This document shows, one piece after another, positions 4,272-37,832 of a DNA stretch of 41,005 bases. The DNA comes from an uncultured Candidatus Peribacteria bacterium (GTDB lineage Bacteria; Patescibacteriota; Gracilibacteria; Peribacterales; Peribacteraceae): positions 1 to 41,005 of the forward strand of contig CAYZGJ010000002.1 of the NCBI GenBank assembly GCA_964478005.1, written 5' to 3'. The notes under the pieces were generated by a model that worked only from the letters and a program-made list of their open reading frames with translations, was not told the origin of the DNA and ran no database searches. The stretch's first letter is position 1; each line of letters starts with the position of its first letter. Made by a program: the position numbers and the translations under genes.

Positions 4272-4299
4272 TCATTATCAATTATCCATTATCCATTCC
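4272..4299 (+). repeat. Heptamer array (CATTATC/ATTATCC family, 4 units) filling the tpiA-SPFH spacer
   Basis: tcattat|caattat|ccattat|ccattcc, followed by tccc-ATG (4304). Confidence 0.8.
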
Positions 4300-9958: not shown

Positions 9959-10714
9959 ATGCTCCATGCCATGGATTTCGCGTCGCATGTCATCAGTGGG
10001 GCGCTCTGTCAGTGGGAAAACACTGAACCTGACCTGGTGGCGAGCTGCGCCACGCTTGTGCCGTGCTTCCTACCAAGGAAACCCAAAATTGATGCCTCTT
10101 TACTATCAAAGGATCCTCGGATGCAATGGGGCTTCGCCCACTATCGCGCCATCAATGACCTCGTGCATGCCTCTCCTCAATTTCATACATGGGAAGAGGT
10201 CGTACGGCATCATGTCCGGGACCTGCCTCTCGGCAAGCACCCCAGTAATTGGGCGTATCACGTTCTCACGGAACAGATTATCGGCGGGCGTGCTCTTGAG
10301 CATCCAGCCTGGAAGAAACTCTTTCATGCCGCTTTGCAGCATCGCGAAGCAGTAATTGCTCTTCTGCACATTCCTGACGCGTTGCGCATGGAAAAAATGG
10401 ATATCGCCCATATTCTCAATCGAGTGTTTGATGTATTGGATCGTAATTATCTGCACTATCACCAAATGCCCCGCTTTGCACAGCGCTCCTTTAGCCGGCT
10501 CGCACGGACACACTCTCGTCAAATGGGAGAAGATGCCCAACGAATCGACCATCGTGATTGGCAATTGCAGCTGCATGACGCTATCGCCCGCGTACTGGAA
10601 CACATTCCCGCATGTGAGGTGCAACAATGGATCGCAAGACTGACCGCGGAGGTGCGCAAAGCCATGCGGCAGACATGTGCGCCCGACTCTGCTACACTGG
10701 GCATCCATCCATGA
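9959..10714 (+). CDS. Hypothetical His-rich protein in a lower-GC segment
   Basis: ATG 9959 (alternative 9971, MDFASHVISG) in ORF 9785..10714. No family recognised. Composition visibly more AT-rich than the flanks. Confidence 0.5.
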   Translation: MLHAMDFASHVISGALCQWENTEPDLVASCATLVPCFLPRKPKIDASLLSKDPRMQWGFAHYRAINDLVHASPQFHTWEEVVRHHVRDLPLGKHPSNWAYHVLTEQIIGGRALEHPAWKKLFHAALQHREAVIALLHIPDALRMEKMDIAHILNRVFDVLDRNYLHYHQMPRFAQRSFSRLARTHSRQMGEDAQRIDHRDWQLQLHDAIARVLEHIPACEVQQWIARLTAEVRKAMRQTCAPDSATLGIHP

Positions 10715-17615: not shown

Positions 17616-17659
17616 GGAAGCTGAGGAGGGAAAAGAAGCGAAGGAAGCGAAGGAGTACT

Positions 17660-20447: not shown

Positions 20448-20478
20448 GGAGAGGAGGAGAGGAGGAGAGGAGGAGAGG
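20448..20478. repeat. 8-nt tandem array GGAGAGGA x~4 abutting the rpsK ATG
   Basis: ggagagga|ggagagga|ggagagga|ggagagg. Reads CCUCUCCU on the mRNA strand. Confidence 0.8.
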
Positions 20479-22346: not shown

Positions 22347-22352
22347 GAAAGC

Positions 22353-22442
22353 AATGGATAATGGACAATTGATAATGGACAATGATCTTCTTCATTCTCT
22401 TTCTACAAGTCATTATCCATTATTCATTATCAATTATCCATT
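22353..22442. repeat. Inverted pair of heptamer arrays (AATGGAT / ATTATCC family) forming the adk-map intercistronic hairpin
   Basis: Left arm 22353-22385 aatggataatggacaattgataatggacaatga. Right arm 22410-22442 tcattatccattattcattatcaattatccatt. About 28 of 33 positions are complementary. Confidence 0.85.
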
Positions 22443-22444
22443 CG

Positions 22445-23008
22445 TTAACCAATCGCCAGCAAAATCCTCTCAAACACCTCCTCCATGCTCCCCTCGCCGT
22501 CGACCTCCACCACCCTGTCCTCGGCTTCGAACGCGCGGATGACCGGCTCCGTCTTCTCGTGGAAGAGCGCCATGCGGCGGCGGATGGTCTCCTCGCTGGC
22601 GTCATCGGCCCTCCCCTGCTCCTTGGCCCGCCCCAGGATGCGCTGCACCGCCTCCTCTTCGTTGACCGTGATGTGCACGCACAGGTAGTCGCGCTTCAGC
22701 GCGTCCATCATGGCGACGAACGCCTCGCGCTGGTCCATGTCGCGGGGGATGCCGTCGAAGAGAATCTGCTTGCCGTCTCCGTTGAGTTCCTCCACGAAGC
22801 TCCGGACGACCTCCATGATGATCTCGAAGGGAACGAGATTGCCCTGATCGATGAAGCCCTTCACCTGCTCGCCCAGCGGCGTCCCGGACGCGGCGATCCG
22901 CCGCAGCTCCCCGCCCGCCTCGAAGATGACGTACCCCTTCTCCTCAGCAAGCCGCCGGGCCTGCGTGCCCTTCCCCGATCCTTGAATGCCAAATAAGACA
23001 AGATCCAT
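22445..23008 (-). CDS. adk: Adenylate kinase (short form, no zinc lid)
   Basis: MDLVLFGIQGSGKGTQARRLAEEKGYVIFEAGGELR...LFDGIPRDMDQ.... Confidence 0.92.
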   Translation of the reverse strand: MDLVLFGIQGSGKGTQARRLAEEKGYVIFEAGGELRRIAASGTPLGEQVKGFIDQGNLVPFEIIMEVVRSFVEELNGDGKQILFDGIPRDMDQREAFVAMMDALKRDYLCVHITVNEEEAVQRILGRAKEQGRADDASEETIRRRMALFHEKTEPVIRAFEAEDRVVEVDGEGSMEEVFERILLAIG

Positions 23009-23109
23009 AGCCCGCAGAGCATAGCGGAGGCCGTGGGAAGTGCAAACGGCGATCGAACGCCCTCACGGTACTCCATCTATGCACCGGCAATTTCAATCAC
23101 GGCGGCTCC

Positions 23110-23391
23110 CTAACCCGCTTGTTTTTGTTGCCATGGAGGCCTATCCATCAGTGTATGCTCCCCATCTGCACTTACGATAAAAATGGTGCAACACATCCCG
23201 ATACCATCCGCATCGTGCGTAGAAACATCCGCCTTCTGATTTTTCCCCCTCAATATTCCACGTATTCGTTCCGCCAAATTCCGAAGCATTGCTGACATCT
23301 TCGCAGCAACCATCTGCTCTCCTTCCGATAGCAAATCAAATTCCAAAGTAATTGCGGATAGATCCGGCCCTTTTTTCAGCCAGCTTGTCAT
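23110..23391 (-). CDS. Hypothetical small protein (second gene of a low-GC cassette)
   Basis: ORF track 93 aa. ATGA overlap with the upstream orphan. No family recognised. Local GC about 45-50% by hand count, against about 63% in the flanks. Confidence 0.5.
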   Translation of the reverse strand: MTSWLKKGPDLSAITLEFDLLSEGEQMVAAKMSAMLRNLAERIRGILRGKNQKADVSTHDADGIGMCCTIFIVSADGEHTLMDRPPWQQKQAG

Positions 23392-23750
23392 GTTCCAGAA
23401 CCAGAATCTGCCGATTCAACCATCTCACCCGGCGTCACTTCCCCCTTGCCATTTTCAGGAATGCGCCCGCCTAACAGATCCATTCGCACAGGGCAGCCGC
23501 CATGTTGCTGATGATGCACTTTCCCCTGAAACCCACTCGGCCTCGCCACGGTAGCAGGCTGACCGTTACGCCCGACCAGATCGACAATCCCTTTCCAAAA
23601 ACGAACTGCCCAATAGCGTGTTCCGTTCGTACCGTTTGCTTGTTGCTCCGGATCATGTGTGAACAGCTCCACGAGACACCCCCCCTCGCTGCGCAAACCG
23701 CAGGGGCCGCAATAGTCGTCTCCACCCTTGGTAATCTGCAATTCACTCAT
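23388..23750 (-). CDS. Hypothetical small Cys-containing protein (first gene of a low-GC cassette)
   Basis: ATG 23750 in ORF 23388..23789 (MSELQITKGGDDYCGPCGLRSEGGCLVELFTHD...). No family recognised. Confidence 0.5.
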   Translation of the reverse strand: MSELQITKGGDDYCGPCGLRSEGGCLVELFTHDPEQQANGTNGTRYWAVRFWKGIVDLVGRNGQPATVARPSGFQGKVHHQQHGGCPVRMDLLGGRIPENGKGEVTPGEMVESADSGSGT

Positions 23751-23788
23751 AGTGCTCAAAAGAAAATCCGTGCAATGCACCCTCTGCA

Positions 23789-25066
23789 TTACACAAGCTT
23801 GTCATAGTCATGCGCGAGCATCTGCGCGTTCACCTGGCGAATCAACTCCATGACGACGCCGACGACGATGATGAGGCCGGAGCCGGAGATGAGCAGGTCG
23901 TTGGCGTTGAGGGTGGAGTACTTCGTGAAGATCAGCGGGATGATGGCCACGAGGCCGAGGAAGGAGCCGCCCCACAGGTTGAGCCGGCTGCTGGTGCGCT
24001 CCAGCATGGAGGCCGTCTGTTGGCCGGGACGCAGCCCGGGCACGAAGCCGCCGCGCTTCTGGATGGTCTCCGCGATCTCCTTGGGCTTGAAGGTGACCGA
24101 CACGTAGAAGTACGTGAAGGCCAGGACCAGCAGGAAGTAGACGATGATGTAGGCCCAGCCGGGATTCTGCGCGTTGAAGTAGGTATTGATGACGGAGACG
24201 AGCCCCTGGAAGCGGGGAGCGGTCTGGAGGAACTGCGCGACGATGGCCGGCATGGTGATGAGGGAGACGGCGAAGATGATCGGGATCATGCCCGCCTGGT
24301 TGAGGCGGATGGGAATGCCGCCCTGCACCCCGCGTCCGGCCCCCTGATTGGCGTAGGTGATGGGGATGAGGCGGTGCGCGTCGGTGAAGAGGACGACGGC
24401 GACCAGCGTGGCGAGCGCGACGAGCGCGAAGAGGACGAAGGCGCCCTGCTGGCTCTGGCCCGTGAGGATCATGGCGCTGACCTGCGCGGGGATGTTGGCG
24501 ACGATGCCGGTGAAGATGAGCAGCGAGATGCCGTTGCCGATCCCCTTCTCCGTGATCAGCTCGCCCAGCCACATCAGGAAGACGGAGCCTGCCGTCACGA
24601 AGAGCATGGGCAGGAGCACGCCGGGGAAGGACGTGTCCACCAGGCTGACGCCGCCGCGCGAGAGCAGGATGAGGAATCCGTAGCTCTGCACGAAGGCCAG
24701 CGGCAGCGAGAGCCAGCGCGTGTAGCGGTTGATCTGCTGCTGCCCCTGCTGCCCCTCCTTGCTGAGCGCCTCCAGTTTGGGGAAGATGACGGTGCACAGC
24801 TGCATGATGATCGACGCGTTGATGTAGGGCGAGAGGCCCAGCATCACGATGGAGAAGTTATCGACGGCGCCGCCGGTGAGCGCGGCGAAGACCCCCAGCA
24901 GCCCGCCCGATGCGCGGCTGTCGAGGAACTGGGAGAGGGCGAACGGATCGGTGCCCGGCACGGGCAGGTGCGCGACGACGCGGTAGAGAAGGAGCAATCC
25001 GATCGTCAGGACGATGCGGCGACGCAGGTCCCGGGTGCGCCAGATCTGTCGGAAGTAGGAGAACAT
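23789..25066 (-). CDS. secY: Preprotein translocase subunit SecY
   Basis: 425 aa, 10 TM pattern. LLLYRVVAHLPVPG, LGLSPYINASIIMQL, GISLLIFTGIV, RGGFVPGLRPGQQT. Confidence 0.95.
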   Translation of the reverse strand: MFSYFRQIWRTRDLRRRIVLTIGLLLLYRVVAHLPVPGTDPFALSQFLDSRASGGLLGVFAALTGGAVDNFSIVMLGLSPYINASIIMQLCTVIFPKLEALSKEGQQGQQQINRYTRWLSLPLAFVQSYGFLILLSRGGVSLVDTSFPGVLLPMLFVTAGSVFLMWLGELITEKGIGNGISLLIFTGIVANIPAQVSAMILTGQSQQGAFVLFALVALATLVAVVLFTDAHRLIPITYANQGAGRGVQGGIPIRLNQAGMIPIIFAVSLITMPAIVAQFLQTAPRFQGLVSVINTYFNAQNPGWAYIIVYFLLVLAFTYFYVSVTFKPKEIAETIQKRGGFVPGLRPGQQTASMLERTSSRLNLWGGSFLGLVAIIPLIFTKYSTLNANDLLISGSGLIIVVGVVMELIRQVNAQMLAHDYDKLV

Positions 25067-25118: not shown

Positions 25119-25562
25119 TCAACTGCGGACAATCGTGAGCGTGCCGCCGGCATCGGCAATGGCCTTCTTCGCGGTTTTCGACGCGGCGTGCGCCTCGATG
25201 TTGATCTTCTTGGTGAGGGAACCGACCCCCAGAATCTTCACCTTGCGGTTCCGGCGGACGATGCGGCGGTCGACGAGATCGGCCAACACATAGGAACCGG
25301 CTTCCAGCGAACGCTCCAGCGTGGCGAGGTTCAGCGCGTCATACTCCACCTTGCGCGGATTGCGGAATCCGCCCAGCTTGGGCTGGCGGCGGATGAGGGG
25401 GGTCTGTCCGCCCTCGAACCCGAACTTGCGCCCCTTGCCGGTGCGCGACTGCTGGCCTTTGGTGCCGCGGCCGGCGGTGGTGCCGCCCTTGCCGCTGTTG
25501 CCGCGCGCGACGCGCTTGGCCTTGCGACGGGAACCGGTGGCGGGTCGGAGAGTGTGCAGCAT
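25119..25562 (-). CDS. rplO: 50S ribosomal protein L15
   Basis: ATG 25562 in ORF 25119..25640. MLHTLRPATGSRRKAKRVARGNSGKGGTTAGRGTKGQQSRTG...FEGGQTPL. Confidence 0.95.
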   Translation of the reverse strand: MLHTLRPATGSRRKAKRVARGNSGKGGTTAGRGTKGQQSRTGKGRKFGFEGGQTPLIRRQPKLGGFRNPRKVEYDALNLATLERSLEAGSYVLADLVDRRIVRRNRKVKILGVGSLTKKINIEAHAASKTAKKAIADAGGTLTIVRS

Positions 25563-25636
25563 GGGGTACGAAGGAAAAGACGCCAAACGACCATGCGTGA
25601 TGGCCGGGCCGCTATGGTAGGGATTGCGCGGCGAAT

Positions 25637-26167
25637 TCACAAGGGATTTTCTCCCCCCATCGCGGCTACTCTCTTCCCGAACTCCGCCGCAGCATCCGGT
25701 CCGTTGCCCGTCACGAGCAGCCCGTCCGTCACGACCGATTGTTCCACGAATTCCGCACCGGATCGCTCGATTTGCCGGATCTGCGTTCCCTGCCCGTCGT
25801 CCCAGACGGTCGCCCGCTTCCCTTGCAGCACCCCGGCGGCTGCCAAAATCGTGGGCGCAATGCAGATGGCGCCGAAGGGCCGCCCCGAGGCCGCCGCCGC
25901 GCGGGCGATCCGCAGGGCATCCGCATCGTCCACCAACGCGTGCGCTCCCGGCCCGCCGATGAACGCGATCCGGTCGTAATCATCGACGCGGACATCCCGC
26001 AGCGCCACCGTCGCTTCTTCCGAACCGCCATACTTCCCCGTGCACGTTCCCGCCTGGGTACTCGCCAATGCGATGGCGAAGCCGGCATCCATCAAACCCT
26101 TCCGTGTTCCATCCAATTCTCTGTCCTGATACCCTTCCTGCGCGATGATGAGAAGTGCGGTACGCAT
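25637..26167 (-). CDS. DJ-1/PfpI family protein
   Basis: MRTALLIIAQEGYQDRELDG...YDRIAFIGGPG...GRPFGAICIAPTILAAAGVLQGKRAT. Nucleophile-elbow Cys within AICIAP. Confidence 0.85.
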   Translation of the reverse strand: MRTALLIIAQEGYQDRELDGTRKGLMDAGFAIALASTQAGTCTGKYGGSEEATVALRDVRVDDYDRIAFIGGPGAHALVDDADALRIARAAAASGRPFGAICIAPTILAAAGVLQGKRATVWDDGQGTQIRQIERSGAEFVEQSVVTDGLLVTGNGPDAAAEFGKRVAAMGGENPL

Positions 26168-28298: not shown

Positions 28299-28360
28299 GA
28301 CGGGAAGAGGAGAGGAGGAGAAGAGCGAGAGGAGGAGAGGAAAAACGGATGGGGGGGGTA

Positions 28361-32674: not shown

Positions 32675-32752
32675 GGGAGGGGTGGGTGGAAAGCGGGAGG
32701 CGGGTGAGAGGTCGGTAGAGACGTTCCGACGGAATGTCTTTACTACGGTGGA

Positions 32753-35887: not shown

Positions 35888-37174
35888 TTATCGCACTGCG
35901 CTGATCTGCTTCATGCGCGTGAATGCGCGTGTCCCATGCTTTCCCAGGGCCATGCCGAATCCGCTGTCTTTCCAGCCACACCACACTCCTTCCAGAAATG
36001 GAAGATTCGCATCGTTCTGCCAGACCATTCCGACATGTAATTGTGAGGCAATCCTCTGAAACGCCTCTGCGTCCGCTGTCCAGACCGATGCGCCGAGGCC
36101 ATAGGGTGTCTGATTGGCAAGGGAGATCGCTTCTGCCTCGGAAGTGAAACGATGCACGGGGAGGATCGGCCCGAATGTTTCTTCTTTCCACAGAAGACCT
36201 TCCGCGCTGTCGCATTCCAGCACTGTCGGCTCGATGCGCTCTGCCTTCTCATCGATCGTGCCACCCGTCACCACCCGGCACCCGCGGGAGCGCGCATCCT
36301 CCAGATGGTGCCGCACGATGTCAAACTGCTCCCGGGATGCAAAGCGCGTCCTGGGTTGCGCGCGCACCGCATCTTTCAATGCGTCCAGGAATGCATCGGC
36401 GATATCCGCGTGCACGAAGACGCGCTCCACGGAGGTGCAGCACTGTCCGTTGTTCATCATTCCATGGAGCGCAATCAACGCAGCGGTTTGCTGCAAATCA
36501 CAATCCGGCAAGATGATGGCCGCATCCTTCCCACCCATTTCCAAAAGACAGGGAATCATATTTTCACCGCAACGTCGCGCAATCTCTTTCCCCACCTTCG
36601 TCGATCCCGTAAACGAAATCATATCGACATCCGCTTCCACCAATGCGCGGCCCGTCGCGTCATCGGAGGGAAGAACCTGCAACACACCTTCCGGCAGTCC
36701 TGCTTCCGTGAAGATGCGCTCGATCCACTGGGCCGTTTCCGGTGTGAGGGGAGACGGCTTGAACAAGACGGCATTCCCCGCCATCAGCGCGGGGGCGATG
36801 GTCCAGAGCGGCGTATCCAGCGGGAAGTTCCACGGCTTGATCGCACCAATGACGCCGAGCGGCTCAAAGTGCAGCATGGTGGAACGCGCGTTCGCCGTCT
36901 CTCCTTCGTGCTCCACAGGTTCCGGTGCGAGGTAGGCGGGTGCCTTGGCGGCGAAGAATTCGAGGATCTGCTGAGAGTACGCACAATCCGAGAGTGCCTC
37001 CTCCATGAGTTTGCCCATTTCCCTGTTGATCGTCTCCGCTGCTGCCTGACAATGCTCCCCCAGCACCTGACTCGCTTTGCGGAGCACGGCGGATCGCTCT
37101 TTCATGGACTCTGCCGCCCACTGCTTCTGCGCTGCGCGCGCTTGTCGGATATGCGAGGAAAGATCAGGAGTCAT
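35888..37174 (-). CDS. Aldehyde dehydrogenase family protein
   Basis: ATG 37174 in ORF 35888..37327. KPWNFPL, FTGSTKVGKEI, LEMGGKD, NNGQCCTSVERVFV, EETFGPILPV. Confidence 0.88.
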   Translation of the reverse strand: MTPDLSSHIRQARAAQKQWAAESMKERSAVLRKASQVLGEHCQAAAETINREMGKLMEEALSDCAYSQQILEFFAAKAPAYLAPEPVEHEGETANARSTMLHFEPLGVIGAIKPWNFPLDTPLWTIAPALMAGNAVLFKPSPLTPETAQWIERIFTEAGLPEGVLQVLPSDDATGRALVEADVDMISFTGSTKVGKEIARRCGENMIPCLLEMGGKDAAIILPDCDLQQTAALIALHGMMNNGQCCTSVERVFVHADIADAFLDALKDAVRAQPRTRFASREQFDIVRHHLEDARSRGCRVVTGGTIDEKAERIEPTVLECDSAEGLLWKEETFGPILPVHRFTSEAEAISLANQTPYGLGASVWTADAEAFQRIASQLHVGMVWQNDANLPFLEGVWCGWKDSGFGMALGKHGTRAFTRMKQISAVR

Positions 37175-37238
37175 GGTGAAGAGTGTAATGCTCCCATGAT
37201 GTATTACCAATTGAATAATCACCTCCACCATCCCCAAC

Positions 37239-37267
37239 CTGACAAAGTACAAAATTCCCGCTATCCT
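37239..37267 (+). promoter_or_regulatory. Promoter cTGACA-17-TATCCT placed 7 nt before ATG 37275 (leaderless configuration)
   Basis: ctgaca (37239-44), 17-nt spacer, tatcct (37262-67), ctctgcc, ATG. The -10 box lies inside the 33-bp direct repeat. Confidence 0.4.
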
Positions 37268-37290
37268 CTCTGCCATGGACCCCATCCGTC
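37258..37290 (+). repeat. 33-bp perfect direct repeat, copy 1 (contains the -10-like box, the ATG and the first 5 codons, MDPIR)
   Basis: ccgctatcctctctgccatggaccccatccgtc is identical to 37962-37994. Confidence 0.95.
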
Positions 37291-37832
37291 CAGCAGAACG
37301 GATCGCCATCCTGGTGGACGGCAGCAACCTCTACCACTATCTGCGCGAACTACAATTGCGCGGACTTGCTGAGTTGGACTACCGGGCGTTTGCACAGCAG
37401 CTCGCGCACGGTCGCACTGTTGTTTCTGCCACATATTACATCGGCAAGGTACGATCGCATGGTGATGCCAAGGGGGAAGAGCTGCGCAAGTGGCAGCAAC
37501 GACTCGTCGCTCGGCTGCAGCAGATGGATTGGAGGGTGGAATTCGGACACATGATGGAAAATCGCGGCGTTTTTCAGGAGAAAGGCGTCGATGTCCACAT
37601 GGCCGTCGATCTGCTTACGGGTGCGTACGATGACCGGTATGACACAGCCGTGCTCGTGAGTTCCGATACGGATCTCATCCCTGCGATTCGCTGCGTCCGA
37701 CAGAAGGGGAAATCTGTCGAGTACGTCGGCTTTGCTCATCGTCCCTCATTCGGACTGATCAAGAACGCGGATGTCACGACGACGCTGCGTTTGCCGGATC
37801 TCCTTCCATTGCTCCGCAATACTCAACCATAA
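37275..37832 (+). CDS. NYN (LabA/DUF88-like) domain protein, predicted RNase
   Basis: IAILVDGSNLYHYL...KGVDVHMAVDLL...AVLVSSDTDLIPAI.... Confidence 0.85.
   Translation: MDPIRPAERIAILVDGSNLYHYLRELQLRGLAELDYRAFAQQLAHGRTVVSATYYIGKVRSHGDAKGEELRKWQQRLVARLQQMDWRVEFGHMMENRGVFQEKGVDVHMAVDLLTGAYDDRYDTAVLVSSDTDLIPAIRCVRQKGKSVEYVGFAHRPSFGLIKNADVTTTLRLPDLLPLLRNTQP

Follow-up and report, generated by a model that had tools for sequence, protein, structure and literature searches.

The secY and adk genes of this high-GC CPR bacterium (63.8% GC) are separated by about 740 bp of lower-GC DNA that is specific to its lineage. We give roughly even chances to the reading in which this segment is an unconserved, lineage-specific insert and its two small ORFs, ORF1 and ORF2, are a very young and dispensable pair, either recently acquired or born de novo. 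On the present evidence this is an ordinary lineage-specific orphan segment, and its annotation as a toxin-antitoxin or defence locus is unwarranted. If the ORFs are real, they would show cleanly how orphan small proteins can come to be expressed by settling within a core operon of a reduced CPR genome, and would bear on the origin of new genes in streamlined symbionts. The variable secY-adk junction would be a useful strain marker and a spot in which to seek accessory cargo in Peribacteria.

Layout and composition of the secY-adk gap

We examined the gap in the context of the whole 41,005-nt stretch of DNA that was analysed (the window). On the minus strand, the gene order is rpsE, a DJ-1/PfpI gene, rplO (25119-25640), secY, a gap of 780 bp, adk, map, infA and rpmJ. 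The gap and its flanks contain the following features:

23789-25066, minus strand: secY, the upstream flank (Pfam SecY, E = 6.7e-96; GC3 0.95)
23758-23796, minus strand: terminator-like hairpin (stem 23796-23768, 12 pairs, 5-nt loop), followed by ATTTTCTTTT
23388-23750, minus strand: ORF1, 120 aa from MSELQ, Gly-rich, with a CxxC-x7-C-x6-H cluster; an orphan of uncertain coding status
23110-23391, minus strand: ORF2, 93 aa; an orphan, more protein-like than ORF1
23049-23788, no strand: the lower-GC lineage-specific segment of about 740 bp, alignable to no relative (GC 0.53)
23009-23048, minus strand: conserved leader, CGTTTGCACTTCC-N5-CCTCCGCTAT..., directly upstream of adk and common to the sister lineage
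22445-23008, minus strand: adk, the downstream flank (Pfam ADK, E = 6.6e-31; GC3 0.88)

The initial annotation, made from the sequence alone, had described a block of lower GC splitting secY from adk, and the windowed GC content bears this out. The whole gap has 53.3% GC, compared to 64.9% for secY and 63.8% for adk; 200-nt windows over 23100-23800 lie between 47 and 57.5%, against 60.5-68% in the flanks, and 23001-24000 (54.8%) is the minimum among the 1-kb windows of the 41 kb. The segment is no assembly artefact, since two independent Logan assemblies (SRR31189352 and SRR31189356) agree with it on every base, the copies being 100% identical. The accompanying statement, that nearly all bacterial spc operons have secY next to adk, applies less well to CPR, where, among 61 sampled loci with both genes, the gap is at least 200 bp in 17 and at least 500 bp in 10.

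The two small ORFs were also found as described, co-oriented on the minus strand, 120 and 93 aa long and joined by an ATGA in which the stop of ORF1 overlaps the start of ORF2 (TCAT on the plus strand at 23388-23391), with the motif CGPCG...C...HD in the first protein and MCCTIFIV in the second. ORF1 starts 39 nt past the secY stop codon, an upstream ATG inside the hairpin providing an alternative start for a product of 133 aa, and ORF2 ends 101 nt short of adk.

The hairpin at the secY stop codon, which it overlaps, is a putative terminator and has the longest stem of the terminator-like sites scanned between 16000 and 35000 (local fold -15.5 kcal/mol, z = -1.3). The ATG of ORF1 lies 11 nt past its T-run. 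No sigma-70-like promoter was found in 23009-23800, by a type of scan that CPR promoters may escape. As there is a hairpin at the secY stop and no such promoter in the segment, expression of the ORFs would need read-through. It is thus doubtful that the pair rides in the most highly expressed operon, as the earlier picture had it, given 12 pairs and a T-run right at the secY stop. If the pair is expressed, ORF1 would be translated from transcripts reading through the hairpin and ORF2 would be translated after it, by coupling across the ATGA overlap, while the final 40 nt or so of the gap would act as the conserved leader of adk.

This leader is 85% identical to that of the sister lineage (L083) over 33 nt, compared to 77-79% in the coding flanks, and the conserved 40 nt are probably the adk 5′ leader or translation initiation region, serving adk expression. 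A scan of metagenome contigs for the leader pattern recovered the L083 lineage again and no other. In place of a purine Shine-Dalgarno sequence, most genes of the window, and ribosomal-protein genes above all, have pyrimidine-rich CT tracts ahead of them (ctcctcc, tccctcc; for example, in the 30-nt stretches 20448-20477, 28299-28328, 32675-32704 and 17616-17645 upstream of start codons), which suggests an unusual translation-initiation signal of this lineage.

The secY-adk junction in related genomes

The SecY of the window shares 71-76% identity with that of MAGs labelled Candidatus Peribacteria, Peregrinibacteria or Peribacter, which places the window in a CPR bacterium. Relatives were found via SecY (80 genomes) and via close Adk homologues. 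The segment was absent from all 80 SecY-anchored genomes and from the closer relatives found with Adk, and neither in the sister lineage (SecY 93%, Adk 88%) nor in any other locus did tblastn detect a match to ORF1 or ORF2. At the same junction, the relatives carry the following:

L083/L084/L091, the sister lineage (Adk 88%, SecY 93%): a 1072-bp gap of 48.7% GC with unrelated sequence, in which an opposite-strand 206-aa singleton orphan is called
L087 (Adk 87%): a third unrelated sequence, with an opposite-strand orphan
L085/L086 (Adk 80%, SecY 87%): a 4-bp gap
L088 (Adk 70%, SecY 83%): a 26-bp gap
L092 (Adk 70%, SecY 82%): an 83-aa orphan and a Trp-repressor-like gene
L089 (Adk 69%, SecY 82%): a PMT_2 glycosyltransferase
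L004-L013 (Adk 55-58%, SecY 71-76%): gaps of 3-467 bp
L008 and L013 (Adk 55-58%): uncalled low-GC3 ORFs of 79 and 68 aa, respectively, from the secY stop
L009 (Adk 55-58%): a codon-adapted 106-aa predicted membrane protein (GC3 0.93), in a 5-member cluster

More distant CPR junctions hold genes for an SPP/presenilin-like protease, DUF389, guanylate kinase or TerC/DUF475, and every other secY-adk gap of at least 600 bp holds ORFs, most of which are called as genes. There is nothing special about the position in this clade, different and unrelated cargo being present in almost every Peribacteria lineage sampled. Judged from these loci, the secY-adk junction is permissive and hypervariable in the Peribacteria clade. 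The junction varies across the relatives, and therefore not even the sister lineage conserves ORF1 and ORF2. Other junctions around adk, map and infA of related Peribacteria (L092 1816-2743; L083 5447-5548; L084 5728-5922) also hold small called genes that are lineage-specific and have no Pfam match, so the variability is not confined to the secY-adk spacer.

The layout rpsE-DJ-1-rplO-secY of the sister lineage is as in the window. A blastn alignment of the window with L083 ends at the end of secY and restarts about 40 nt upstream of adk, and over the rest of the 7-kb neighbourhood the two align without a break. Residual homology between the insert of the window and those of L083 and L087 was looked for and rejected, the Smith-Waterman scores being no higher than those of shuffles. 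Four-fold sites are only 49-63% identical between the window and L083, which is near saturation, and independent insertions at this site are consequently indistinguishable from one old insert that has drifted neutrally. Under either insertion history, a protein kept by purifying selection would still be expected to be detectable; none was detected. On the favoured reading, foreign or fast-evolving DNA of about 740 bp occupies a junction that is tolerant of invasion in Peribacteria.

The closest known phenomenon is the invasion of ribosomal-operon junctions, together with lineage-specific ORFans. Unrelated genes, few in number, invade junctions of the str-S10-spc-alpha ribosomal-protein cluster (Brandis 2021, PMC8046335), and, like the segment in the window, they have a composition unlike that of the host, no homologues and a presence/absence pattern among close relatives. 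Unlike those cases, the invaded junction in the window lies within a usual single transcription unit (secY-adk-map-infA), the host is a CPR bacterium and not a member of the Gammaproteobacteria or Bacilli, and the ORFs are candidate proteins only.

Coding status of ORF1 and ORF2 and rival readings of the segment

A young gene pair has one serious competitor, to which we give somewhat less than an even chance, namely that the segment is a non-coding spacer in which the ORFs are chance frames of a TA-poor, G-rich sequence, perhaps as what neutral drift has left of an older insertion. The only roles of such a spacer would be those of a terminator or attenuator after secY and of a promoter or leader for adk-map-infA, which the hairpin with its T-run at the secY stop would fit, as would the restriction of conservation with L083 to the 40 nt beside adk, where identity is above that of the coding flanks. 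A neutral insert inherited from a shared ancestor would, with four-fold sites near saturation, be unalignable, as is seen. The gap is left empty by the gene callers, both on the window contig and in Logan assembly L001, and neither ORF was found among 15 billion predicted proteins, where the window contig's own Adk (P0002) is present. GC3 is not raised in the ORFs (0.54 in ORF1 and 0.46 in ORF2), and the host-like codon usage of the genes around them (GC3 0.75-0.95) is absent from both.

The length of the ORFs was assessed against the composition of the region. The TA dinucleotide is depleted (observed/expected 0.54), owing to which each of the six frames has open runs in the range of 91-132 codons; a run of at least 133 codons occurs in 39% of dinucleotide shuffles, so that a single long ORF is unremarkable. 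What the shuffles seldom reproduce is a pair of ATG ORFs on one strand with lengths of ≥120 and ≥93 codons, which occurs in only 0.5% of them (p ~0.005); the real pair also tiles the gap with its 4-nt overlap, and this argues against chance frames. Three-base periodicity points weakly in the same direction (p ~0.08 for ORF1 and p ~0.012 for ORF2, against shuffled ORFs). A codon model derived from mid-GC CPR loci places the frame of ORF1 at the top of the six and that of ORF2 level with the best, with log-odds that are nevertheless negative for both; low-GC3 bona fide genes of the window (those for the aldehyde dehydrogenase, the NYN-domain protein and the DUF5615 protein) score positive under the same model. 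The CT-rich leader present before most genes here is missing before the starts of ORF1 and ORF2.

The structure models divide the pair. The AF2 model of ORF1 has a pLDDT of 34.7, too poor for a fold search and in line with a chance frame, and that of ORF2, made without an alignment, reaches a pLDDT of 60.5 and a pTM of 0.47, with a beta-beta-alpha-beta-beta topology of moderate confidence only.

The gap itself was also compared with true spacers. Those without coding sequence in the host and its relatives generally have a lower GC content, as the segment does, but those inside the window are shorter and more AT-rich (39-45% GC), and a non-coding gap of 780 bp would be unusual in a compact CPR genome. 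A promoter role for such a spacer is not favoured by the promoter scan described above. A structured non-coding RNA was rejected: the Rfam scan of the gap gave no match at E ≤1, the tRNA and tmRNA scans were empty, and the folding energy of the whole gap is that of shuffles (z = -0.16).

In summary, the coding signals of ORF1 and ORF2 are weak. The two are most likely either very young orphan genes, which we put at about evens, or chance frames in a spacer, which we rate somewhat lower, and the chance that at least ORF2 is translated is even or marginally better.

Neither protein had been assigned to a recognised family in the initial annotation, and this was upheld by every search made here. 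Scans of Pfam, NCBIfam, PADLOC and PHROGs returned no family for either ORF apart from the faint NikR match described below, a word-indexed search of 5.8 billion proteins returned nothing, and sequence searches of the PDB gave no match. With ORF1, a full HMMER search of 1.84 billion representatives gave one match at E = 1.7e-4, which was rejected as an artefact, 12 weak matches to a tandem-repeat protein having been added up. Metagenome and viral contigs, scanned with the concatenated ORF1 and ORF2 and with tblastn confirmation, held no match, and neither did plasmid DNA by tblastn; in phage DNA, the only tblastn matches were to integrases at a non-significant E = 0.5. When the ORF2 model was compared by Foldseek with PDB and BFVD, the top matches had E = 0.16 and E = 0.07, respectively; nothing reached 0.001, and the matches did not agree on a fold.

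It is improbable, in our estimation, that the region downstream of secY is a nursery or landing pad in which read-through from a highly expressed essential operon exposes small, unrelated and lineage-specific ORFs to translation and in which the window pair is a functional new module, very young and possibly serving addiction or immunity. ORF1-ORF2 and the ORFs of L008 (79 aa), L013 (68 aa) and L092 (83 aa) may be examples of such a nursery. Like the window pair, the small ORFs of L008, L013, L009 and L092 are oriented with the operon and start at the secY stop or no further than about 80 nt from it, that of L008 having an ATGA overlap with the secY stop itself, and those of L008 and L013 also have a low GC3 and were never called as genes. 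None of the four has detectable similarity to ORF1 or ORF2, and the ORF of L009 is codon-adapted and conserved in its 5-member cluster, whereas the window ORFs are neither.

We hold it very unlikely that the pair is a functional selfish or defence module (toxin-antitoxin, addiction or immunity) hitch-hiking on the transcription of the spc operon, as the initial annotation had proposed. The pair does share with type II toxin-antitoxin operons its small co-directional ORFs, the 4-nt overlap, an atypical (foreign) composition and a variable site, the junction acting as a place for changing cargo, and ORF1 has its Cys/His cluster. Nevertheless, no evidence of any kind was found for an addiction, toxin-antitoxin, immunity or defence module, the family, sequence and fold searches all being empty. 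Neither ORF matched a type II toxin superfamily (RelE/ParE, MazF/CcdB, PIN/VapC, HipA, Doc/Fic, GNAT, zeta or HicA) or a defence family of PADLOC-DB 2.0 at E ≤1, and there is no toxin- or antitoxin-family relative by sequence or by fold. A DNA-binding antitoxin fold (RHH, HTH, AbrB or Phd/YefM) was likewise not found, the ORF2 model being one of moderate confidence. The one faint lead, a match of ORF2 to the ribbon-helix-helix N-terminus of NikR (E = 0.08), was discarded, as its score of 13 bits is below the cut-off of 175 and the predicted topology of ORF2 is not ribbon-helix-helix. Upstream of ORF1, an autoregulated promoter with an operator palindrome was not found, in a scan that may miss CPR promoters, the sole palindrome there being the terminator-like hairpin. 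Toxin-antitoxin and defence modules are typically patchy yet widespread, whereas the window pair is limited to one population, and the cargo of the relatives at the same site is ordinary or orphan and not defence-related. The initial annotation had itself listed a lack of conservation of the pair elsewhere, along with a lack of coding signal, as counting against its proposal, and the pair was indeed found nowhere else, sister lineage included.

Least probable of all is that a mobile element (an IS, MITE, intron or prophage end) inserted downstream of secY and left this segment as its remnant, which would account for the foreign composition, the sharp left edge at the secY stop and the different inserts of related genomes at the same site. 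Against it, the terminal inverted and flanking direct repeats do not exceed chance, similarity to a transposase, integrase or endonuclease was not found, the segment has no further copy in the window, in the fetched loci or in public collections, and Rfam gave no intron match. A 10-nt repeat, AGCTTGTCAT, shared by the end of secY and the start of ORF2, was considered as an insertion scar and rejected, as it fits chance (about 0.7 expected in 1.2 kb by our estimate).

Other features of the window

Intergenic palindromes built of tandem 7-nt units (ATGGATA/ATGGACA) were observed at 1808-1892, 4278-4296 and 22352-22442, with a heptad array on one strand and, 20-30 nt on, the same array on the other. 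The sequence ATGGATAATGGA, with up to 2 mismatches, has 18 matches versus 1.5 expected. Analogous heptad palindromes occur in the secY-adk spacers of relatives such as L007 and L011. Such palindromes may serve as terminators or form a family of REP-like elements in Peribacteria.

The gene rpmD (L30) is usually found between rpsE and rplO. In the window, this place is taken by the DJ-1/PfpI family gene (25637-26167, minus strand), as it is in L083 and L084; more distant Peribacteria have DJ-1 another 1.5-2.5 kb upstream.

A DUF5615/PIN-like (Mut7-C) protein is encoded at 230-745 on the minus strand (E = 4.8e-16, GC3 0.63). Members of the DUF5615 family are usually the toxins of DUF433-DUF5615 pairs, and this protein may be a more credible toxin-antitoxin candidate than the ORF1/ORF2 pair.

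Two further regions of lower GC were observed. The block 35888-37832 (about 57% GC) encodes an aldehyde dehydrogenase on the minus strand and an NYN-domain protein on the plus strand, whose listed ORF starts overlap divergently; given their GC3 of 0.63-0.68, the block may have been acquired horizontally. The 815-bp segment 9933-10747 (54.7% GC) contains an ORF of 200 aa (10106-10708, minus strand) that has no Pfam match and a strong three-base periodicity (chi-square 41.6, p = 2e-7), and that looks like a genuine orphan gene.
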